A stretch of 64,000 nucleotides of DNA from an uncultured Candidatus Saccharibacteria bacterium (GCA_964469405.1 CAYXYP010000003.1:2573-66572), one strand, 5' to 3'; shown: positions 719-41,741, counted from the first letter of the stretch. The notes: generated from the sequence alone by a model not told the origin. Made by a program: numbers and translations.

Positions 719-1861
719 ATGTTTTGGAATCATAGAAGCTATTTAGATTATGCCTCGGGCGTAAGTGGTAACCCTTCGTCGCCCCATGAAGAGGGAAGGC
801 TCGCGAAGAAAATGCTTGAAGACGCCCGGGCAACTATCGCGCGGCTTACCGAAGTGCAGTCGGACGATGTCATTTTTACGAGTGGTGCGACGGAGAGTAA
901 CGCTCTCGCAATCCTTGGGCATACAAGAGCACGTAAGGCGAACGGCGGGAAAGATATGCATATTTTATATTTGCCAAGCTCGCACGCGTCAATCGTGGAG
1001 AATGCAAAATTATTGATGACGGAGGGAAATGTAGTTGAGCCTCTTCCGATTAAGGATTGTCGCGTTGATATCGAAGCATTAACGAAAATGTTACGGAGCG
1101 AAACAACGCTGATCTCAATGGATGCTGTTTGTGGCGAAACAGGTGTGGTGTGGAATACGCGCGAAGTGGCACATCTTCTCCAGACCCATGTAGGACGTAG
1201 TACGTCCTACATGGGTGAACGGGCGCTGCTCCATGTCGATGCTAGTCAGGCCTCTTTGACCGAGAAGATGTCGCGCGCGCACTTCGGCGCAGATTTACTC
1301 ACCCTCGATGCTTCGAAAGTTGGCGAGACGCGCGGTATCGGCGTTCTGATTGCACATCAGACAATTCCGATTGCTCCGCTCTATGCAGGAGGCGGTCAGG
1401 AGCGTGGGTTGCGTTCCGGAAGTGAAGCGCCTAAACTTGCGCGGAATTTCGCGCACACGCTCTCAATTGTTGTTCATGGTCGTGAAGCGTTTCGGGCTTC
1501 GGCGGAGCGAGAGCGAACTCTTCTTATCGAAGCCATCAATAATAGTGTTCAGAATGTTTATATACAGGAAGGTCGTTTTCAGGCGCCACAGATTCTCAAC
1601 CTATCGTTCCCGGGTCGTGACACCGACTACCTCGTCGCGCTCCTTGACGAAGCGGGTTTCGCCATCTCATCGAGAAGTGCATGCGAAACAGACTCTAAAG
1701 AGGGATCGCGTGCAGTTCTGGCTCTCACGGGTGACCCCGAACGCGCTCGCGCGACACTCCGAATCTCGTGGGGTCCGGACGTTCGTTCGAGCGAATTAAC
1801 CCGCTTTGCTAGGGCGCTTGCACGGGCAGTTGCATTTATTGACAATAGTAGTCATGGGTAG
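719..1861 (+). CDS. Cysteine desulfurase-like class V aminotransferase (NifS/IscS family)
   Basis: N-terminus YLDYASGVSGNPSSPHEEGR matches the cysteine desulfurase start (YLD.A.T...NPSS.H..G). A lysine in LDASKVGETRGIGVL aligns with the PLP-lysine region. Confidence 0.7.
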   Translation: MFWNHRSYLDYASGVSGNPSSPHEEGRLAKKMLEDARATIARLTEVQSDDVIFTSGATESNALAILGHTRARKANGGKDMHILYLPSSHASIVENAKLLMTEGNVVEPLPIKDCRVDIEALTKMLRSETTLISMDAVCGETGVVWNTREVAHLLQTHVGRSTSYMGERALLHVDASQASLTEKMSRAHFGADLLTLDASKVGETRGIGVLIAHQTIPIAPLYAGGGQERGLRSGSEAPKLARNFAHTLSIVVHGREAFRASAERERTLLIEAINNSVQNVYIQEGRFQAPQILNLSFPGRDTDYLVALLDEAGFAISSRSACETDSKEGSRAVLALTGDPERARATLRISWGPDVRSSELTRFARALARAVAFIDNSSHG

Positions 1862-7752: not shown

Positions 7753-7918
7753 GTACTAGGAAAGATAGCAGATAGAGGGTGAGAAGCGAATACCTGGGGC
7801 TTCGCAAGGTCAGACTGAGCAAAGGCGATGGAGGAGGGTTCGCGGGTTTGTTAGAAGGCAAAAAACCGTGTGGGGGAAAAGCCGCGTGGCGCAGAGTCTC
7901 GCGCGGTATGATATATGC

Positions 7919-8836
7919 ATGCGTTCTCGCATTTCTCTATTGGCACTCTTTTTTATAGTGAGTTCAATCGCACTGCTACCTCTGGCTGCGCACGCGTCAG
8001 CAATACCATTTTTTGGTCCGATTATTCCGCAAGGAGATAATCAATCAGTGTGTCCTGCAGGCTGGGGCATGGTACTTGTAGTTATCAATAACATCATTAG
8101 TTTTTCTATCACTATTGCTATTGTATTTGTCGCGCCGATCATGATTGGCTACGCAGGATTCCTCATGGTGGTAAATCCGACATCCTCTGGAGATATTCAA
8201 AAGGCAAAAAAAGTTCTCTGGAACACCATCATTGGTCTTGTCATTTCACTAGCTGGCTGGATGATTGTCGCTGCAATTATGGCGGTGCTTTATAATCCAA
8301 CTCAAGCGAATGGCTTGAAAGCATGGGCGGACATCATCGGTTCACACAATGCTCCAGCATGCCTTCCTCAAAAGGGGGCACTGCCCGGAGATACATTAAA
8401 TCAAGCGGTCACGACGCCTGGTCTTATTCCTGGAGCTGTGCAAGGCAAGTTCACGTTTGATCCGGGGATAGATGCACAAGTGATTACCGAATCAGGAGCA
8501 CTCAATTCATTGTTGTCCTGTATGGTCGCAAAAGTGCCGGCAGGCGTTGGCAGAATCTCTTCCATTTCTGATAGTGTGATAGCCAGCGGTTCGAAAACAT
8601 TTGCACAGTGCGCGGCGGGTGGAACCGCAGCTGGTTGCGCGCACGAGGTCAAATCTTGCCACTACGGCGGCAGGAGTTGTATCGGGAGTTCCTACGCGGT
8701 TGATTTCGGTGATCAGCAAAACAAACAAGCACTTTCGGCGGCAGCGATGGCATGCAACTCGGGAGCATTCATCAATGATGAAGGTGGCCACATACATATA
8801 AGTGTTGGTATGTTATCGAATTGTGAGTGTAACTAA
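7919..8836 (+). CDS. T4SS-type pilin-like (TrbC/VirB2-like) membrane protein with a Cys-rich C-terminal extension
   Basis: Signal peptide MRSRISLLALFFIVSSIALLPLAAHA, two TM helices, and a motif SSGDIQKAKKVLWNTIIGLVISLAGWMIV typical of Gram-positive/CPR T4SS pilins. The ~150-aa C-terminal region carries 10 Cys and SYAVDF...NDEGGHIHISVG. Confidence 0.55.
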   Translation: MRSRISLLALFFIVSSIALLPLAAHASAIPFFGPIIPQGDNQSVCPAGWGMVLVVINNIISFSITIAIVFVAPIMIGYAGFLMVVNPTSSGDIQKAKKVLWNTIIGLVISLAGWMIVAAIMAVLYNPTQANGLKAWADIIGSHNAPACLPQKGALPGDTLNQAVTTPGLIPGAVQGKFTFDPGIDAQVITESGALNSLLSCMVAKVPAGVGRISSISDSVIASGSKTFAQCAAGGTAAGCAHEVKSCHYGGRSCIGSSYAVDFGDQQNKQALSAAAMACNSGAFINDEGGHIHISVGMLSNCECN

Positions 8837-16977: not shown

Positions 16978-17841
16978 TTATATCCGGTGCCATGAGCCGA
17001 ATTCTTCTTTGATAAGGCCGCGAAGCTCAAGGGCAACAAGTGCAGTAAGAAATTCGCCCGCCGTGGAAGCTGTGCTTCCACGGCGGAGAATCTCATCACG
17101 CGTCTTTGGCTCTTCAAGCATACCCCAAATTTCAAGTTCAGCATCTTGAAGCTCGGTCGGTATACCGCCACGCACAACGGTCTCGTGTGGCGGTATTTTG
17201 AGAGCTTCAAGAATATGAAGTGATTCGGTGACGAGTGTCGCACCGAGGCGAATAAAAAGGTGTGGGCCGAAAGCATGAGCATCCCCGATGCGGTGGGGAA
17301 TACAGAGCAGTTCACGATTATAGTCCGCCGCGAGTCGTGCAGTGATGAGCGTTCCGGATTTCTGTCCTGCTTCGACGATAAGTACCGCATCGCTCATGCC
17401 GACCATCAATCGATTACGCGATGGGAACTCTTTTAGCCACGGTTTGTGCATAGGTTCCTGTTCTGATATCAGCGCCCCTCCGGCGTTGAGTATTTCTTTT
17501 GCCAGCCCGAAGTTCGATCGCGGGCTGATAACAGAATCATCGAGTCCCGAGCCGGGTATGGCGATAGTATGGAGTCCAGCAACAAGAGCTGCTTTATGTG
17601 CGCAAGCATCAACACCAAGCGCGAGACCGCTCACGATAGAGACAGGATAATCTGCGAGACCATGAATGAGTTTCTCACAGGCTTCTTGTCCATAACGTGA
17701 CATCGCCCTTGAACCCACGACGGCGAGGATTTTCGTCCCGGCTATAGGCAATGAGCCTCGAATCCACAGTCGCGGAGGCAACTGCGGTATCTCCAGCAAT
17801 TGTTTTGGCCACTCTGTGCGCTCCAGTTCTCGAATACCCAT
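16978..17841 (-). CDS. dprA: DNA processing protein DprA (SMF)
   Basis: LAVVGSRAMSRYGQEA...SGLALGVDACAHKAAL is the DprA Rossmann-like core. Confidence 0.85.
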   Translation of the reverse strand: MGIRELERTEWPKQLLEIPQLPPRLWIRGSLPIAGTKILAVVGSRAMSRYGQEACEKLIHGLADYPVSIVSGLALGVDACAHKAALVAGLHTIAIPGSGLDDSVISPRSNFGLAKEILNAGGALISEQEPMHKPWLKEFPSRNRLMVGMSDAVLIVEAGQKSGTLITARLAADYNRELLCIPHRIGDAHAFGPHLFIRLGATLVTESLHILEALKIPPHETVVRGGIPTELQDAELEIWGMLEEPKTRDEILRRGSTASTAGEFLTALVALELRGLIKEEFGSWHRI

Positions 17842-28903: not shown

Positions 28904-30127
28904 ATGTTCGAATCAATTCCGTATCTTTGGCAGTACATACTGCAGACGATTGGGTTCTTTGCAATGTGTGCTTTCGTGGCGTATCTCAGTTTTCTCATTT
29001 TCAGGAAGCTTCATTCTCGTCGAGTCACGGCAATGTTTGTCGGCGTACTTTCTGTGGTCTCCGTTGCATTTTTTGTTGTGAATGGATTACCAAATGTCTT
29101 AGCGTACCCATTCTTCCTAAAAACATACGGACCGGCAGAAGGGCCGATACTTCCGTTGAAAAACGTATGGGCGTTTGTTACACATTTTGATTCTTTTGAG
29201 AAAGTCGCAAATATTGCTCGAAATCCAACGAGCCTTCCTGCTCCGTTGAATCGCTTAAAGCCCGAAAATGTTGTTATCGAAATGACTGCAAAAGAAGTGA
29301 TCTCTGAAATGGCTCCTGGTGTCACATTCAATTATTGGACATTCGACGGCGCTATCCCGGGACCGTTTCTTCGTGTGAGAGAAGGGGACACTGTTACATT
29401 GACGCTTCATAATGATGCGACAAGCCTGCACCACCACTCAATAGACCTTCACGCGGTTACGGGGCCCGGTGGAGGAGCCGCTGCGACTAACGTTGCGCCT
29501 GGGGAAAGTAAGACGATTACGTTCAAGGCTCTCAATCCGGGTATGTATGTGTATCATTGTGCCGTTCCGAATGTGGCCAGTCATATGGCGCATGGCATGT
29601 ACGGGCTGATTTTGGTTGAACCGAAAGAGGGTCTGTCGCCTGTTGATCACGAATTCTATGTTATGCAGGGAGAATTTTATAGTGCAGGAGCTCTTGGGCG
29701 CACCGGTCTGCAACTCTTCGATGCTGAGGCTATGCTTGACGGGAAGCCTCAGTACGTAGTGTTTAATGGGCGTACGGGAGCACTTGCAGAGAGTATGAAC
29801 GCGAAGGTTGGGGAGACAGTTAGGATCTACGTCGGCAATGGAGGAGTAAATCTAATCTCCAGTTTCCACGTCATTGGAGAAATCTTTGACAATGTATTTC
29901 GAGAGGGAGATCTCGTAAGTCCTCCAGCACCGAGTGTGCAGACGACGCTGGTTCCCGCGGGAGGTGCCTCTGTGGTGGAGTTCCGTGTCGATTATCCGGG
30001 AAATTACGTCCTCGTTGATCATGCCCTTTCTCGTCTTGATCGTGGCGCGTGGGGAGTCCTACATGTCACAGGTGAAGCAGATCCAGTTATCTTTACAGGT
30101 GAAATCCAGAAGGCTGGTGGGCATTGA
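28904..30127 (+). CDS. nirK: Copper-containing nitrite reductase (NirK-type multicopper oxidase), membrane-anchored
   Basis: Two N-terminal TM helices. HHHSIDLHAVTGPGGG, YVYHCAVPNVASHMAHGMYGLILVEP (type-1 Cu His-Cys...His...Met) and NLISSFHVIGEIFDNV (the classical NirK SFHVIGEIFD motif). Confidence 0.85.
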   Translation: MFESIPYLWQYILQTIGFFAMCAFVAYLSFLIFRKLHSRRVTAMFVGVLSVVSVAFFVVNGLPNVLAYPFFLKTYGPAEGPILPLKNVWAFVTHFDSFEKVANIARNPTSLPAPLNRLKPENVVIEMTAKEVISEMAPGVTFNYWTFDGAIPGPFLRVREGDTVTLTLHNDATSLHHHSIDLHAVTGPGGGAAATNVAPGESKTITFKALNPGMYVYHCAVPNVASHMAHGMYGLILVEPKEGLSPVDHEFYVMQGEFYSAGALGRTGLQLFDAEAMLDGKPQYVVFNGRTGALAESMNAKVGETVRIYVGNGGVNLISSFHVIGEIFDNVFREGDLVSPPAPSVQTTLVPAGGASVVEFRVDYPGNYVLVDHALSRLDRGAWGVLHVTGEADPVIFTGEIQKAGGH

Positions 30128-34968: not shown

Positions 34969-34980
34969 TGTTAACTACAT

Positions 34981-35015
34981 GTCCTGCGTACGATCGTACG
35001 CAGGACATTTTTATG
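34981..35015 (+). terminator. Rho-independent terminator
   Basis: GTCCTGCGTACGATCGTACGCAGGAC, a perfect 13-bp stem, then TTTTTATGTTTTTT. Confidence 0.8.
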
Positions 35016-35663: not shown

Positions 35664-38426
35664 ATGGAATCAGCACCTACGTTGTCCACGCCAGAACAGG
35701 AGCTTGCATACTTGCGCGAGCAGGTGGCGCGTAAAGAGGCAGAGCTCGCTGGAGGGGGGAATGATGAGCGAGTAAAAATTATTTCTGAACAGATACACGT
35801 GCATGCAGCTGCACCAGTAGAAGTGCTCGCGAGCGAGTATCGTATGGCCGAATCTGCGATTATTAATACTGCAGACAAGATACTTGCCGAACTACATCTC
35901 GGTGGAAGTGAACAAGCTATCAAGAGTTTGCAGCAGACGATAGTGGAAAAGGGGATTAAGAATGCGCTCAGTGTCGCCGAGAAACTTAATGATCCGCATG
36001 TCACAGACGATTTCCATCGGTATCTCGTGCGTTACGTAGCCGCAGGCCTGCTCGCTCCAGGATACGACGAGAAAATGCCGCGTTTCCAAGCACTGAAGAT
36101 GACACTTTACGAGATTGCACTTCCCGGGCCAAAAAATGTGGAGAAAAACGATCGCGCGAAGACGCTCAAGGAGCTTATTTCAGGCATGGAACAATTCTAT
36201 GCGGGTCTTCTTTCAGTCGAAGATGCGACACCGGGTGAGCCTCACTACTACGCGCTTGAGCTCGCGGTGCCTGCCGACAGTCCAGAGCTTCAATTCTATG
36301 CAGCGGTGCCAAACGGGAAGCGGAATTTATTTGAGAAACAACTTCTTGCCATCTTCCCCGATGCACATCTCGTGCCACAACCATCTGATTACAATATTTT
36401 TGCTCCGAATGGGGTCTCGCTCGTCTCGACGGCAACGTTTGCGGAGAATCCCGCACTTCCTCTCAAGGATTACACTGATTTTGATTATGATCCGATTAAT
36501 GCGATTACAAACGCATTCGCGAAAATAGCGCATGCAGGCGAGGGTGCAGCGCTCCAGTTCATTATTGAGCCACGTGCAGAACGGTACGTGAAGCATTATC
36601 AGAAAATTCTTCAAGCTCTTCGCAAAGGAGAAAAATATTCTTCGGCGTTTAGTATTCCCGATACGGTTCTCGGCACAATTACTCGCGATATCGGCCGGAC
36701 ACTTTTTTCCAATAAACCGAAAGATGTCGTAAAAGCAAAAGAGGCTGAGACGCGACAAATTGAAGCAAACAAGACGCATATTGAACAAGTGGAGAAGAAA
36801 ATTTCAGCGCCTATACTCGGCGCGACGATACGGCTCGCTGTTTCCTCAAAGGATGCATCGACGAGCGGTCAAGTACTCGGCGAGCTTGAAGCAGCGTTTA
36901 ATCAGTTCGCAAATACGCAAGGGAATCGTTTAGAGTTCATTCGTGCCGATCAGCGCCAGACTCAGAGTACGCTAAACGATTTTTCCTTTCGCTTGCCGGA
37001 TGCTTCGCATACGCTCCCACTGTCGCTTCATGAGCTCACCGCCATGTATCACTTCCCGCCGTCTGGTATCGAGAGCTCTCCACATCTGAAGCAGGCGCGC
37101 TTCACGCATGCTCCGGCGCCACTCTCGCTTCCTCAGGTCGGAACGCTCCTTGGTATCAACAATTATCGCGGACAAGCCACAAACATTCATCTTGGTACCG
37201 AGGATCGTCTGCGTCATCTCTACATCATCGGACAGACTGGCACGGGTAAGACAGGACTGATGAAGTCGATGGTCGTCCAAGATATACAAAATGGCGAGGG
37301 ATGTTGCTTCATTGACCCTCACGGGTCAGATATTATGGACATTCTCGCCGCAGTACCGCCTGAGCGGTATACGGACGTAATCTATTTCGACCCTGCAGAT
37401 CTCTCGCGTCCATTCGGACTGAACTTTCTCGAATACGATCTTTCGCGTCCCGAACAAAAGACGTTTATCGTAAATGAGCTCCTGATGATTTTCAGGCGCC
37501 TGTATGGTGATGTTCCGGAAAGCATGGGTCCGGCATTTGAACAATATTTTCGAAATGCGACGTTGCTCGTGATGGAAGATCCGTCGAGTGGTTCAACCAT
37601 GCTCGATATCGCTCGTGTGCTTGCCAACAGCGAGTTTCGTCACGAGAAACTCGCAAAGAGTATGAATCCCATCGTGAATCAATTTTGGAACGAAATTGCG
37701 ACGAAAGCCGGTGGTGATGCTGCGCTTGAAAATATCGTCCCCTACATCACCAATAAGTTTGATGACTTCACAGCGAATGATTTCATTCGTCCAATCGTAG
37801 GACAGCAGGAGTCTTCTTTCAAATTTCGCGAGGTCATGGATACAAAAAAGATACTTCTCATCAATCTCTCCAAAGGCCGCTTGGGCGAGCGAAATGCGAA
37901 CCTACTTGGTCTCATTATTGTTGGGAAGCTTTTTATGGCGGCACTTTCCCGCGCAGACAATCCGCGTAAAGAGTATCCGCCTTTTTATCTCTACATCGAT
38001 GAGTTCCAGAACATCACGACCGACTCGATTCCTGGCATTCTCTCTGAAGCGCGCAAATACAAACTCGCACTGACGATGGCGCACCAATTTCTCAATCAAG
38101 TTGAAGAGAAAACACGTAGCGCAGTCTTCGGAAACGTAGGTAACATGGCGGTCTTTCGAACGGGCGAAGAAGATGCCGAGTTCTTTGCCAAACAATTTTC
38201 TCCGGTTTTCGAGGCGCTCGATTTCGTAAATATAGAGAATCGCAATGCGTACGTGAAGATTCTTGCGAGCGGCGTGCCGCAAAAACCTTTCGATATGAAA
38301 ACGCCGGATGTGCCTGCGGCACATCCGGCGCAAATAGACGATCTTATTCACCTCTCGTCGCGCACCTACGGTCGCGACCGTGCTACAGTCGAAAATATGA
38401 TTCGTGAGCGCTATCTCTCGAAATAA
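35664..38426 (+). CDS. Large P-loop ATPase with a VirD4/TraG/TraD (type IV coupling protein)-like C-terminal domain and a ~500-aa N-terminal domain of unknown function
   Basis: Walker A GQTGTGKTG followed by FIDPHGS. C-terminal YLYIDEFQNI (Walker B-like) and ILSEARKYKLALTMAHQFLNQVEEKTRSAVFGNVGNMAVFRTGEEDAEFF, which closely matches the TraG-D_C/TrwB consensus. No N-terminal TM helices. Confidence 0.65.
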   Translation: MESAPTLSTPEQELAYLREQVARKEAELAGGGNDERVKIISEQIHVHAAAPVEVLASEYRMAESAIINTADKILAELHLGGSEQAIKSLQQTIVEKGIKNALSVAEKLNDPHVTDDFHRYLVRYVAAGLLAPGYDEKMPRFQALKMTLYEIALPGPKNVEKNDRAKTLKELISGMEQFYAGLLSVEDATPGEPHYYALELAVPADSPELQFYAAVPNGKRNLFEKQLLAIFPDAHLVPQPSDYNIFAPNGVSLVSTATFAENPALPLKDYTDFDYDPINAITNAFAKIAHAGEGAALQFIIEPRAERYVKHYQKILQALRKGEKYSSAFSIPDTVLGTITRDIGRTLFSNKPKDVVKAKEAETRQIEANKTHIEQVEKKISAPILGATIRLAVSSKDASTSGQVLGELEAAFNQFANTQGNRLEFIRADQRQTQSTLNDFSFRLPDASHTLPLSLHELTAMYHFPPSGIESSPHLKQARFTHAPAPLSLPQVGTLLGINNYRGQATNIHLGTEDRLRHLYIIGQTGTGKTGLMKSMVVQDIQNGEGCCFIDPHGSDIMDILAAVPPERYTDVIYFDPADLSRPFGLNFLEYDLSRPEQKTFIVNELLMIFRRLYGDVPESMGPAFEQYFRNATLLVMEDPSSGSTMLDIARVLANSEFRHEKLAKSMNPIVNQFWNEIATKAGGDAALENIVPYITNKFDDFTANDFIRPIVGQQESSFKFREVMDTKKILLINLSKGRLGERNANLLGLIIVGKLFMAALSRADNPRKEYPPFYLYIDEFQNITTDSIPGILSEARKYKLALTMAHQFLNQVEEKTRSAVFGNVGNMAVFRTGEEDAEFFAKQFSPVFEALDFVNIENRNAYVKILASGVPQKPFDMKTPDVPAAHPAQIDDLIHLSSRTYGRDRATVENMIRERYLSK

Positions 38427-38429
38427 TCT

Positions 38430-40775
38430 ATGTCTGAAAAGCTCCCGCGAATGAAAAAAGAAAGTTTAGAACCTTCTTATAATCCGGAAATAGAAGGACT
38501 TATTGCGCGAGCCCCGAAAGGCTCTGACACTAAGGTTAATCAAGAAATTCAGCCAAATGAGCTACCGAAGTCCGTAGAGAAGCAGCGCACAATTATCGAA
38601 TCTCCGAATGAGGAAGAATTGCAAAAACTTTTGGATGCGACAGCTCACGAAAGACCAGATCCCAGACAATTTATGGACGTTCTTAATAAAGCCAACGCCA
38701 ACACTCAGGGCGCAATTTCATATCATTGGTTAGAACAGATCGGAATAATAGCGGCCAAAAGACTTGGAGGAAATGAGTACAATGAGTTCAAAAAATATGT
38801 CAATGATACATATGAATTAAACAGTCCAGATATAAAAGATATAACGCCGGGACTTTCTTTTTTGAGAGACGCGCTCAATACAATACCTCTCGAGCCGAAG
38901 CAAGTAAGTAAGGGAGAAGTAATTACTACGGCACCCAACGTTCAAGAATACCAAGCACCAAAGAAACTGCCGGGTAGTTCGCCGGAAGAATTAGAAATTT
39001 TTCAGAGAAATCTTCGCATGAGCGTTGAAGACTGGCGGAAAGAAAGAAAAAGTATCGGGGTCTCAGAACCGCTTCAGAAAATCGAATCAGGAGTTGAAGA
39101 TCCTAATGTAGTTGATGCCGAATGGAGGTCCGTGTCCGAATCTGAAGAGCAGATTGGGAGAGAACAAAAAAAGGAAGTATCCTCATTAGATGGAGGCATG
39201 CCCGCATCATCAAATGAAAGAATTTCTGGAAACTCGGTTTTTACTGACGCACAGAAAGAATATTTAGAAAATTTGGACGTCGATATGTCTGTGGACGGGT
39301 TGGAGAATATGACGGAACCGACAACACGTAAGGAATGGAAGGCGGAATTGCGTCGGCTCATTTTTGGTGAGAAGAAGAGTGAAGGAAACAAAGAACGCAG
39401 CGAGATACTAAAGGAACACCTTGCGAAACGTTCGGATGAGTTGGAAGAGGTAGCGACAGAGCGTGGACCGACAGTCGTAAAACTTATCGGTTCTGTTATT
39501 GAACGATACAATAATCTGAATTGGAAGACGAAATTGGTTGTTACGGGAGGTCTTATGCTCGGCGCCTCGTTTACTGCAGCGACGCTACCGATTATTTCGG
39601 GAGCATTGGGTGCAGCACTGTATGGTCAGCGGGTGCTTGGTGGTATCGGTTTTGCAATGAATCGACGTAAAGCACTTGACGCAGATCCGAATCATTGGTT
39701 GGCAGGCAAATCAGAACTTATTAAAAATACGTATGCGACTGCGCTTGCGGCAATGTATATGGGGACTACGATATTTGCCGTACACGAGGGCGTCGAGGGA
39801 TTGAAAGCAGTTGCAAATAGTGAGTGGCTTAGCACCATGCTCGGACATCATTCTGTATTGCCGAGTAGCGAAACTCTTGAAACGATCGCACCTACGCCTG
39901 CTGAAGAGACGATTCCCGAAATACCTACTGCAGACGCCGCACCGGAAATAGTAGGAGGCGAGGGTCATCTTGAGCCGTACAATGTGTATGATCCAAAATT
40001 CGACCAGGAGATAGCTGAAGCACGAGCAGAAGTCGATGGGGGATTAGCTAATGCCCAAGCAGCAGTAGAAAGAATGCAAAAAATTGTTGAAGAGCAAAAA
40101 AATATTTTGAATACCATGCCGGGTGGGTCACCGGTCTCTGATAACAGTATTCCTCAATCAGAGGCGCCGGTTACTCCGGACCACAGTCAGATGAGTGGAA
40201 GTGCAGATACGAGCCCGACTACAGATGCCATTCCTGCGACTGAATCATCACCCGAGACGTCTTTTGCGCCACCGGAAGAAGTGGCAAAATTCGGACTCGA
40301 CCCTATAGATGGGCATCCAATGTCTGAATTAGAAGCTCAAAAATTGGACGACCTTAGGAGAGCTATGCATGACCCAAGAGTAACCGGGGAATGGCCTCCC
40401 GGTCCTTCGGAAGGAAAAAGTTTTACTGAAAAAATTTCTGACTGGTTTACGAGCAATCAGGAGACAGCAAATCAATTCGATATCGGTAGCGTATCCCCAA
40501 TAGAGCCGCACATATATGCAGATTCGGGTGAGCACTTATTTGCCTATGGCGGCTCGTCGATAGAGAAGATGGATGCAATTTATAAATTCCTCACCGATAA
40601 TCCAGGTAAAATTGTTTACAGTACGGATGATCATGGCGCATATCGCATCCCTCTTCATCTCGTAGAAGGGAGGGTTGTTCCGGGGGAACCGATGCGCACG
40701 AGTGGCTTCTTTGGATTCGGTGCTTCATTTATGGATGCCCCAAAGCCAGAGGAATTTGCGAAACTTGTTAAATAG
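38430..40775 (+). CDS. Large hypothetical protein with a central transmembrane segment and acidic/low-complexity flanks
   Basis: Start 4 nt after the ATPase stop, so the two genes form an operon. 781 aa. Central hydrophobic block LVVTGGLMLGASFTAATLPIISGALGAALYGQRVLGGIGFAM ... ALAAMYMGTTIFAV. No known domain. Confidence 0.5.
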   Translation: MSEKLPRMKKESLEPSYNPEIEGLIARAPKGSDTKVNQEIQPNELPKSVEKQRTIIESPNEEELQKLLDATAHERPDPRQFMDVLNKANANTQGAISYHWLEQIGIIAAKRLGGNEYNEFKKYVNDTYELNSPDIKDITPGLSFLRDALNTIPLEPKQVSKGEVITTAPNVQEYQAPKKLPGSSPEELEIFQRNLRMSVEDWRKERKSIGVSEPLQKIESGVEDPNVVDAEWRSVSESEEQIGREQKKEVSSLDGGMPASSNERISGNSVFTDAQKEYLENLDVDMSVDGLENMTEPTTRKEWKAELRRLIFGEKKSEGNKERSEILKEHLAKRSDELEEVATERGPTVVKLIGSVIERYNNLNWKTKLVVTGGLMLGASFTAATLPIISGALGAALYGQRVLGGIGFAMNRRKALDADPNHWLAGKSELIKNTYATALAAMYMGTTIFAVHEGVEGLKAVANSEWLSTMLGHHSVLPSSETLETIAPTPAEETIPEIPTADAAPEIVGGEGHLEPYNVYDPKFDQEIAEARAEVDGGLANAQAAVERMQKIVEEQKNILNTMPGGSPVSDNSIPQSEAPVTPDHSQMSGSADTSPTTDAIPATESSPETSFAPPEEVAKFGLDPIDGHPMSELEAQKLDDLRRAMHDPRVTGEWPPGPSEGKSFTEKISDWFTSNQETANQFDIGSVSPIEPHIYADSGEHLFAYGGSSIEKMDAIYKFLTDNPGKIVYSTDDHGAYRIPLHLVEGRVVPGEPMRTSGFFGFGASFMDAPKPEEFAKLVK

Positions 40776-40783
40776 TCCATGGT

Positions 40784-41092
40784 ATGATGCCACCTATGCA
40801 AGATGAAGTAACTGCTCTCATCGCTACCGATCTCGGTATTACAGATCTTCCATCCGAAGAGCAGCATGCCCTCATTGCGCAGTTCGGTGAGATAGCGCTT
40901 AAATCTGCGACTCTTGCGGTGATGGGCAAGCTTGCCGAAGATAAACGAGACGAATTCGCGAAGATTGCCGAAACTGGTGATCCAACAGCACTAAGAGCGT
41001 TTCTCGATCGTGAGGTGCTTGGGCATGAAGATATCGCGAAGGCCGCAGTCGCCGAGGAGGTGAAGCGGTTTAAGGCTTTTCAAGCCCCGTAG
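40784..41092 (+). CDS. Hypothetical small protein (102 aa)
   Basis: Starts 9 nt after the previous stop. Acidic, helical, no domain recognised. Confidence 0.4.
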   Translation: MMPPMQDEVTALIATDLGITDLPSEEQHALIAQFGEIALKSATLAVMGKLAEDKRDEFAKIAETGDPTALRAFLDREVLGHEDIAKAAVAEEVKRFKAFQAP

Positions 41093-41120
41093 TATAATCA
41101 AACTGTAATTATCATAATTT

Positions 41121-41687
41121 ATGCAACCAACTCAGACTGGTATCGCCGTCGCACTTGCTCTTGTCGTGGTGATTATTTTCTTCATTTTCCCTGGTCTCTC
41201 GCCTTTTGGGGCAGCAACCCCACCTTCTTCAGACGAGGTGAACACTGAAATTACTACTGCCGCTGCTACTTCAGCTACTTCAGCTGCTACTGCTGCTACT
41301 ACTAATAATACTCAAACAACATCTACCACTATGCCTACTGAACCCGTAACCCAACTCCAGGTAATCGACGAGACCGTAGGCAGTGGTGCTGTGGCCGCAG
41401 TCGGCGATAGTGTGACAGTGAATTATGTCGGATCACTCACGACGGGTGTCGTCTTTGATGCTTCTGCAAATCACGGCACCACTGGCTTCACTTTTAATCT
41501 TGGAGCAGGACAGGTGATTAAGGGTTGGGATCAAGGTATCGTCGGCATGAAAGAAGGAGGAAAGCGTATACTTATCATTCCTGCATCGCTCGCATATGGC
41601 AGTCAGGCAGTCGGGGGTGTGATTCCAGCGAACTCAACTCTCATCTTTGAAGTACAACTACTCAGTGTAAAAAAAGGAGCTAGGTAG
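41121..41687 (+). CDS. FKBP-type peptidyl-prolyl cis-trans isomerase, membrane-anchored
   Basis: N-terminal TM, a Thr/Ala-rich linker, then an FKBP domain (VTVNYVGSLTTGVVFDAS...GAGQVIKGWDQGIVGMKEGGKRILIIPASLAYG). Confidence 0.85.
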   Translation: MQPTQTGIAVALALVVVIIFFIFPGLSPFGAATPPSSDEVNTEITTAAATSATSAATAATTNNTQTTSTTMPTEPVTQLQVIDETVGSGAVAAVGDSVTVNYVGSLTTGVVFDASANHGTTGFTFNLGAGQVIKGWDQGIVGMKEGGKRILIIPASLAYGSQAVGGVIPANSTLIFEVQLLSVKKGAR

Positions 41688-41741
41688 ATTTCCAAAAAAA
41701 AGTAATGGGCAGGAAATCATATGATTTCCTGCCCATTTCGT

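Follow-up and report, generated by a model that had tools for sequence, protein, structure and literature searches.

A three-gene operon at positions 35664-41092 (+ strand) of the window, a 64,000-nucleotide (nt) stretch of DNA from an uncultured Candidatus Saccharibacteria bacterium (GCA_964469405.1 CAYXYP010000003.1:2573-66572), encodes a 920-amino acid (aa) ATPase that joins the domain plan of VirB4 to sequence signatures of type IV coupling proteins (T4CPs) and is therefore a hybrid or intermediate of the two motor families of type IV secretion systems (T4SSs). The ATPase gene is followed by genes for a 781-aa membrane protein and a 102-aa acidic protein of the DUF5663 family. The reading tentatively preferred here, at somewhat less than an even chance, is that the locus represents a chromosomal, membrane-associated ATPase module derived from a T4SS motor and spread across Patescibacteria, which would work with the membrane partner and acidic adaptors in surface assembly or export. 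The parts of the operon, including open reading frames (ORFs) and the transmembrane (TM) core, are as follows.

35664-38426, + strand: ATPase ORF, 920 aa
35664-36065, + strand: N-module of the ATPase, acidic and all-helical, aa 1-134 (matched by the profile of separate upstream genes, E 1.4e-38)
36066-37133, + strand: DUF8128 (PF26449), VirB4 N-terminal-domain fold, aa ~135-490
37134-38426, + strand: P-loop ATPase of VirB4/VirD4 (HerA-FtsK superfamily) type, aa ~491-920
37230-37253, + strand: Walker A, GQTGTGKT, aa 523-530
37986-38006, + strand: Walker B, YLYIDEF, aa 775-781
38430-40775, + strand: large membrane partner ORF, 781 aa, starting 3 nt past the ATPase stop codon
aa 1-324 of the 781-aa protein: variable N-terminal half
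~39402-39839, + strand: conserved juxtamembrane region and Gly/Ala-rich TM core, aa ~325-470
aa 471-624 of the 781-aa protein: variable Pro/Ser/Thr/Glu-rich linker
40302-40775, + strand: conserved C-terminal domain of the 781-aa protein, aa 625-781
40784-41092, + strand: small acidic DUF5663-family ORF, 102 aa

The locus is a real three-gene operon in a chromosomal housekeeping setting. All three ORFs lie where an initial annotation of the sequence had placed them, separated by gaps of 3 nt (given there as 4 nt) and 8 nt, and they are taken as real genes because the ATPase has more than 1,000 homologs and because copies identical to the locus occur on several independent groundwater metagenome contigs. 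The other ORFs scanned in the window are housekeeping genes (ClpB, enolase, MiaA, ParB, RelA/SpoT, TopA, DprA, SerRS, Dus, DnaX, TGT, UvrA/B/C, and ATP synthase), with uvrABC no more than 10 kb from the ATPase gene and five tRNAs in the 64 kb. The guanine-cytosine fraction at the locus, 0.46-0.49, falls within the window range of 0.45-0.53 without a compositional break, so that neither flanks nor composition are those of a mobile element. As previously noted for the immediate neighbours, the ORFs scanned in the window yielded no VirB4, VirB6, or relaxase gene, and the related loci inspected show none in their gene tables or Pfam scans; the T4SS linkage expected of a T4CP is thus not seen in either. 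The named sources of close homologs are Kaiserbacteria, Paceibacterota, and Minisyncoccota, all of them Patescibacteria (candidate phyla radiation), and judged from these names the host is a Kaiserbacteria-like member of that group, in keeping with the reduced-genome symbiont supposed earlier.

The motor half of the ATPase carries every motif quoted in the initial annotation (GQTGTGKTG, FIDPHGS, YLYIDEFQN, SEARKYKLALTMAHQFLNQV, and VFGNVGNMAVFRTGEEDAEFF). Across 70 diverse homologs, the Walker A residues G523, G526, G528, and K529, the Walker B residues D779 and E780, and the ARKY and HQ motifs are invariant. An all-helical insertion (aa ~598-712) lies between Walker A and Walker B and corresponds to the all-alpha domain inserted in the nucleotide-binding domain of coupling proteins. 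Their N-terminal TM anchor, placed directly before the nucleotide-binding domain, is absent. As had been expected, the protein passes the Pfam cut-offs for TraG-D_C (24.7 bits vs. 22) and TrwB_AAD_bind (21.4 bits vs. 20.5), but it does so narrowly, and it falls far below every cut-off of the NCBIfam T4CP models (e.g., 48 bits vs. 366). Pfam DUF87 (HerA) scores 21.5, below its cut-off of 23.2. A profile of the 70 homologs searched against PDB sequences retrieved TrwB (1.1e-7), DotL/IcmO (4.1e-6), and HerA (1e-3), and no VirB4. By sequence, the C-terminal half therefore bears a weak but genuine resemblance to a coupling-protein-type motor.

The domain plan points to the other family, in that a RecA-like ATPase domain at the C-terminus comes after an N-terminal domain of VirB4 type. 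The tabulated figures for the relatives of the motor are 29.5 for the VirB4 C-terminal domain of T. pseudethanolicus (4ag5), 28.4 for the C-terminal domain of DndH, 27.1 for TrwB, 25.8 for HerA, and 24.1 for DotL, and the structures 7ovb and 8dol are also among the matches. VirB4 membership by sequence is not found, as the NCBIfam model VirB4_CagE (TIGR00929) covers only the P-loop and scores 15.7 bits where its cut-off demands 643.1, and the Pfam scan reported none of the VirB4 families. The initial annotation could place no motif in the N-terminal ~500 residues; this does not hold for most of that region, since the precomputed Pfam column assigns PF26449, the catalogued domain of unknown function DUF8128, to the exact 920-aa protein and to all close homologs (the local Pfam copy did not report it). 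The N-module that precedes DUF8128 has no Pfam family, and its predicted structure consists of helices spanning residues 10-126 with a local confidence score (pLDDT) of 60-95.

The ATPase family is large. A search of 1.84 billion cluster representatives returned 20,552 clusters at E<=1e-3 and 5,275 at E<=1e-30, and most of the 150 listed matches align from aa ~140-200 to 916; the best 120 homologs are at least 79% identical. In contigs representing one genome per species, at least 599 stretches encode relatives of the ATPase, of which the best 80 were kept, and the neighbourhood counts given below refer to 79 species-level loci. The best 80 are named as, or are consistent with, Patescibacteria (a few automatically labelled bins carry other names) and include Kaiser-, Taylor-, Nomura-, Zambryski-, Wolfe-, Vogel-, Azam-, Moran-, Falkow-, Uhr-, and Komeilibacteria.

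Within this family, the N-module is fused to the ATPase in ~39 loci and encoded by a separate adjacent gene of ~135 aa upstream of the ATPase in ~24, for 63 of the 79 in all, a pattern of fusion and fission that identifies the small protein as one functioning together with the ATPase. Fusion and membrane anchoring are alternatives: a strong N-terminal TM helix is present in 49 of the 52 short (~800-aa) members and in none of the 18 fused members. In the short members the helix stands directly before DUF8128 and hence ~350 aa from the motor. The reported lack of a TM anchor is thus correct for the 920-aa protein, whose sole hydrophobic window (744-762) lies within the ATPase fold and whose N-terminus has no TM segment, but it describes the condition of one sub-clade rather than of the family. 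At seven loci without a detectable N-module (L064, L070, L073-L075, L077, and L081), a lysine-rich ORF of ~166 aa (cluster 24) with a hydrophobic C-terminal stretch and no Pfam family lies directly upstream of the ATPase; it may be a divergent replacement of the N-module.

The 781-aa partner is acidic, as described initially (net charge -45), and has a central hydrophobic core. This core comprises one strong segment (~369-397) and, read by eye, two weaker ones (~401-411 and ~433-452). The multi-helix core of the initial annotation is therefore borne out as to the core and one strong segment, but its further helices, while plausible, depend on the weak segments. No Pfam, NCBIfam, PADLOC, or PHROGs family matches the protein, so that the partner does not turn out to be a member of a known family, and no similarity to the VirB6 or VirB8 families was detectable. 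Only 15 homologs could be detected. Conservation is uneven among the Kaiser-type homologs: identity is 55-68% in the TM core and 23-68% (mostly 51-68%) in the C-terminal domain, but only 13-39% in the N-terminal half and 14-31% in the linker, the latter two being rich in insertions and deletions. In several genomes taken to carry both genes, the ATPase is 83-88% and the partner 39-48% identical to the proteins of the window. Judged from these identities, the partner evolves fast and the ATPase slowly, as a stable core with a fast-changing periphery.

The 102-aa protein is likewise acidic (net -8), in agreement with its first description. The precomputed annotation of the exact protein (P0306) is PF18908 (DUF5663); the local Pfam score is 15.5 bits, below the cut-off of 23.7. 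A DUF5663 profile found a match at 12 of the 79 ATPase loci, always co-oriented and beside ATPases 40-74% identical to that of the window, and in nine of the 12 a large protein with a central TM segment (584-1045 aa, nearly always acidic) immediately precedes it. L004 likewise has an 809-aa protein in this position, and L050 and L082 have looser versions. Altogether, a cassette made of a large central-TM protein and then DUF5663 adjoins the ATPase in ~11-12 of the 79 species-level loci, and an architecture-only scan of the loci revealed no further hidden cassettes. It lies downstream of a fused ATPase in the window, L004, L007, L009, and L044, and downstream of a short ATPase in L072; at L087, a Kaiser-type locus, it is again downstream and the gene order of the window, including an FKBP gene, is reproduced. 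In L051, L057, L058, and L069, it lies instead upstream of a separate N-module gene and a TM-anchored ATPase, and it is also upstream of the ATPase in L084-L086 and L088. In other lineages, the positional equivalents of the 781-aa protein are 584-1271 aa long, have a central TM segment, and directly precede DUF5663. As this adjacency survives rearrangement between ATPases only 40-48% identical, functional coupling of the genes is argued.

A reciprocal test gave the same picture. A DUF5663 profile search yielded 483 matches, and all five homologs on long contigs that were looked up lie in an operon with a DUF8128 ATPase; the test is somewhat circular, as the top matches are likely orthologs of the ATPase-adjacent seed sequences. 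Four of the five have the order of one or two ~550-870-aa proteins, a 1035-1271-aa protein, DUF5663, a ~135-aa gene, and the DUF8128 ATPase, and their sources, where named, are Moranbacteria or Dojkabacteria. The earlier prediction that the ATPase and its membrane partner would prove to be conserved neighbours thus holds across rearrangement and in all five look-ups, but it extends to only ~11-12 of the 79 loci, most of which have housekeeping neighbours. When the ORFs within 7 kb of the ATPase were clustered over the 79 loci, no neighbour occurred in more than ~20, and the commonest were Adk and Map upstream and Ndk and a beta-CASP RNase downstream, a lineage-specific housekeeping synteny.

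The large proteins of the upstream arrangement are related to each other by BLAST and not to the 781-aa protein. Comparison of the latter with them by hhalign aligned 30 columns at a juxtamembrane YNxL..K motif (probability 75%, E 2.6e-5). A single family for all large partners was considered and set aside, given that BLAST gave no link to the 781-aa protein, iterated hidden Markov models did not grow, and hhalign reached only those 30 columns. In L084-L086 and L088, one or two extra co-oriented genes of ~550-870 aa stand upstream of the large partner; none has a Pfam match on record (four were also scanned locally, with no match), and they are related between loci (e.g., L085_571 to L088_566 and L086_738). 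Each of these gene strings is preceded by a PMT_2 glycosyltransferase gene that is transcribed divergently. The system may be larger in these Moranbacteria-type operons than in the window.

As the analogy to every structural relative of the motor suggests, it would probably assemble into a hexameric ring on the cytoplasmic side of the membrane. In most family members, this ring would be tethered by its own N-terminal TM helix, but in the sub-clade of the window the helix is replaced by the fused helical module, so that membrane recruitment would have to come from a partner, for which the co-transcribed 781-aa protein is proposed. The acidic N-terminal half of that protein would lie in the cytoplasm beside the ATPase, while its linker and conserved C-terminal domain would be outside the cell. 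The DUF5663 protein may serve in the cytoplasm as an adaptor or chaperone, in the way that IcmS/IcmW or CagZ assist coupling proteins, and ATP hydrolysis would drive the assembly, export, or surface display of a protein, either the 781-aa partner itself or other substrates. The locus is not part of a conjugation gene cluster, and independence from conjugation is argued from its housekeeping neighbours, from the lack of a tblastn match to DUF8128 in 72,556 plasmid records, and from the few T4CP-like genes near virB4.

Several observations weigh against this proposal. Approximately 65 of the 79 loci have no such partner within 10 kb, and the cassette is adjacent in only ~15%; the ATPase can therefore evidently work without an adjacent copy, and perhaps without any. 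Between the 781-aa protein and its large counterparts in the other arrangement, there is no more than a hint of homology, their equivalence being mainly positional and architectural. Its hydrophobic core is only moderately hydrophobic, with one 19-aa window above 1.4 on the Kyte-Doolittle scale, and the proposed N-in/C-out topology with three hydrophobic segments comes from an own positive-inside reading of the charges (WKTK before the core, NRRK in the loop, and acidic residues past the last segment) and not from a dedicated predictor. The very high conservation of the ATPase would also fit a housekeeping function in nucleic-acid handling. Furthermore, gp156 of phage G, an ATPase of the same type, adjoins a VirB4-like ATPase, which fits a role as the partner of a VirB4 machine.

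In the main alternative, judged rather unlikely, the ATPase is the unlinked T4CP of the canonical VirB4 T4SS of the phylum, whose genes are elsewhere in the genome; it would recruit substrates and pass them on to that channel, and its neighbours would be a substrate or effector and a chaperone or adaptor instead of a channel. The sequence profiles do group the motor with T4CPs, gp156 directly follows the VirB4/TraG-type ATPase gp155, a weak VirB2-like pilin candidate in the window suggests a T4SS in the genome, and a fast-evolving neighbour is what would be expected of an effector. Small acidic partner proteins are, moreover, typical of T4CPs, such as IcmS/IcmW with DotL and CagZ with Cag-beta. 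The VirB4-type N-terminal domain, which no canonical T4CP has, speaks against it, as do the conserved TM core and C-terminal domain of the partner, which look structural rather than effector-like. The excerpted text of a survey of 3,035 Patescibacteria genomes bears on both sides: T4CP genes are often away from virB4, but T4CP-like genes are present in ~500 more genomes than VirB4 (5,713 VirD4-like T4CP homologues in 2,918 genomes vs. VirB4 in 2,417), and the t4cp homologue of S. epibionticum, which may or may not be of the DUF8128 type, is not essential although its T4SS is (PMC12102498). In the same species, the essential T4SS cluster contains no recognisable coupling protein of its own (Wang et al., 2023, PMC10633639). 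A 2025 review gives the same picture of T4SSs and coupling proteins in Patescibacteria.

It is distinctly unlikely that the ATPase is a nucleic-acid translocase like FtsK, HerA, or archaeal Ced/Ted, pumping DNA or RNA at the membrane or through it and serving, for example, chromosome segregation, DNA uptake, or the import of host nucleic acid. Such a role would suit a phylum-wide, highly conserved family surrounded by genes for housekeeping and DNA repair (here uvrABC within 10 kb and dprA elsewhere in the window), the HerA, FtsK, and DndH relatives of the motor, and host-RNA uptake in Patescibacteria, reported in a 2026 preprint that states its mechanism to be unresolved (bioRxiv 10.64898/2026.06.21.733656). 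The closest folds are, however, VirB4 and VirD4, and the N-terminal domain is specifically VirB4-like. Threading of DNA is not known for VirB4. The strong acidity of all conserved partners (net -8 to -66) fits poorly with the handling of nucleic acids, and no nuclease, relaxase, or DNA-binding domain accompanies the ATPase gene. A HerA-NurA pair was rejected for the sub-threshold DUF87 score and the missing nuclease partner. The best PADLOC match, mad8, the ATPase of a DNA-modification defence system (E 3e-12), would also favour work on DNA, but a defence system was discarded, as this match covers only the ATPase fold and neither neighbour has a PADLOC match; no NurA, Sir2, or mad genes were found among the window neighbours. 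Least probable of all, and very unlikely, is a purely lineage-specific synteny in which the ATPase has no partners or only ones encoded elsewhere, and the 781-aa protein is a surface protein of no relation to it that lies downstream by chance. The other neighbours at most sampled loci (adk-map upstream and ndk downstream in a clade of ~20 loci), the handful of detectable homologs of the 781-aa protein, and the want of one sequence family uniting all large neighbours agree with it, but the three-part arrangement recurs in two orders beside strongly diverged ATPases, every DUF5663 gene looked up lies in such an operon, and the intergenic gaps are 3-8 nt.

Compared with known systems, VirB4 proteins (TrwK of R388, 7o42/8rtd; 4ag5) differ in that the ATPase of the window lacks VirB4 sequence membership and adjacent VirB3, VirB6, VirB8, or pilin genes; no VirB3/VirB6/VirB8-type component was found in the window or in the related loci inspected. 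According to the excerpted survey, Patescibacteria genomes usually carry a separate bona fide VirB4 elsewhere (PMC12102498). T4CPs (VirD4/TrwB 1e9r, DotL/IcmO 7ovb, Cag-beta 8dol, and TraD/TraG) have no VirB4-type domain of ~350 aa between anchor and motor, and the window's ATPase has no TM anchor and no link to a relaxase or T4SS. The orphan Patescibacteria T4CP homologues of the survey excerpts, of which only 148 genes were near virB4 and for which exaptation was suggested (Quinonero-Coronel et al., 2025, PMC12102498), are very probably the same genes as the DUF8128 ATPases or a large part of them. Type VII secretion (EccC/EssC, EccE, and WXG100-type substrates of ~100 aa) offers an analogy only, with three ATPase domains there and one here; no WXG motif was seen by eye in the DUF5663 sequence or alignment, and no other type VII secretion genes are present.

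Phage proteins of the family phrog_5156, which matches aa 202-915 of the ATPase (E 1.2e-65), share the DUF8128-plus-motor architecture over ~700 residues. The full ATPase finds these distant relatives in Bacillus and Geobacillus phages at only 21-23% identity (gp156, 23%, E 3e-37) in phage or plasmid-prophage settings. DUF5663, the N-module, and the large TM partner were not detected at the phage loci inspected. In Bacillus phage G (L104, 3285-7427), gp155 and gp156 are tandem genes, and gp155 was considered as a relative of the ~550-570-aa genes of the Moranbacteria-type operons and found to be unrelated, being itself a VirB4/TraG-type ATPase. In phage 0105phi7-2 (L103, 5384-9109), gene 033 comes after three hypothetical genes of ~111-117 aa and before ParA-/RepB-type genes; it is annotated as a 'DNA helicase or translocase', and its annotators also noted a match to TrwK. 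A mobile-element reading was dismissed, since tblastn with DUF8128 alone matched none of the 72,556 plasmid and 50,697 phage records (E 1e-3) and the IMG/VR matches mostly share the motor half only. The single IMG/VR match examined (L094) is a more canonical T4CP of a different subfamily, in an integrative element with a serine recombinase, a methyltransferase, and an AAA+subtilase pair.

Among the homologs, P0235, P0238, P0254, P0258, P0266, and others (~850-950 aa) have only the motor half in common with the ATPase (43-48% identity to aa ~455-917), and their N-terminal ~400-500 aa are not alignable to DUF8128; as about two T4CP-like genes per genome have been published, these proteins may represent the second paralog which that number implies. 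Giant members of 1.4-2.0 thousand aa (P0196-P0198, P0201, P0204, P0211, P0214, and P0216) carry C-terminal extensions of 800-1,200 aa, and P0183 and P0221 have a second, tandem motor domain. The giants were entertained as fusions to the partner and not upheld, as the extensions are similar among themselves but not to the partner, to DUF5663, or to any family in Pfam.

Patescibacteria, which live attached to other cells, account for a large part of the diversity of bacteria. The ATPase, the ~135-aa module, the membrane partner, and DUF5663 might even constitute a self-contained minimal translocon specific to Patescibacteria, derived from VirB4/VirD4 and independent of the canonical T4SS, which is judged unlikely. 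If true, one of the largest lineages of bacteria would possess a secretion or uptake system that had so far gone unrecognised, moving macromolecules across the single membrane of these epibionts, whether surface and host-interaction proteins outwards or host nucleic acid inwards. The initial annotation had proposed such a device, and it was right about the missing anchor and the absence of adjacent conjugation genes, but the pairing proved to be partial and orphan VirD4-like genes were already published: the survey excerpts report them in 96% of Patescibacteria genomes and almost never beside a T4SS (PMC12102498). These excerpts contain no description of the VirB4-like N-domain, the fused or split N-module, or the partner cassette, and no account of DUF8128 (PF26449), DUF5663, the three-part architecture, or the operon was found in the literature searched, within which the VirB4-type N-domain, fused/split module, anchor dichotomy, and partner cassette appear to be unpublished. 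The orphan genes thereby gain a concrete anatomy, consisting of a VirB4-type N-domain with a T4CP-like motor, a fused or separate adaptor, anchored and anchor-less forms, and a recurrent cassette, and the vague annotation 'DUF87/TraM-recognition domain protein' gives way to hypotheses testable in genetically tractable Saccharibacteria. The hybrid ATPase also bears on the evolutionary relation of the VirB4 and VirD4 motor families. Should the ATPase serve only the known T4SS, the result would be a useful refinement of annotation and not a new system.

Downstream of the operon, the following features were found.

41121-41687, + strand: FKBP-type peptidyl-prolyl isomerase, membrane-anchored or exported, 188 aa (Pfam FKBP_C, E 1.9e-30)
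41704-41737, no strand assigned: perfect palindromic hairpin with T-tract, terminator-like (consensus scan)

The FKBP ORF begins 28 nt past the 102-aa ORF in the same orientation and has a hydrophobic N-terminal segment (aa 1-35). It may be co-transcribed with the three genes, and its membership of the system is uncertain. This gene type (cluster 17) is present in eight loci, in the same position at L087, and ORFs of 176-177 aa with a hydrophobic N-terminal segment occupy the FKBP position in L007 and L009. On weak evidence, the hairpin at 41704-41737 would end the + strand unit 35664-41687 and the convergent gene too, while a second terminator-like hairpin (34979-35008) sets apart the upstream 168-aa gene; site counts in the promoter/terminator scan of the region were not above those of shuffled sequence, which leaves support for the operon boundaries weak.

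Elsewhere in the window, the pilin-like gene previously reported 27 kb away is probably the ORF at 7868-8836 (+ strand, 322 aa), which has a signal peptide, two long hydrophobic helices split by a short polar loop, and a Cys-rich C-terminal extension of ~170 aa. Its best Pfam match is T4SS_pilin (PF18895) over nearly the whole profile, but at a sub-threshold 16.6-18.4 bits (cut-off 26.6); it is possibly a VirB2-like pilin of the canonical T4SS of the phylum, standing alone here. At 28904-30127 (+ strand), a 407-aa two-domain multicopper oxidase (Cu-oxidase_3 and Cu-oxidase_2) with an N-terminal membrane segment, possibly nitrite-reductase-like, is encoded in a type of genome usually described as being without respiratory functions. 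The DprA gene at 16978-17841 (- strand), which adjoins topA and a gene of the exo/endonuclease-phosphatase family, indicates natural-competence machinery in the same genome.

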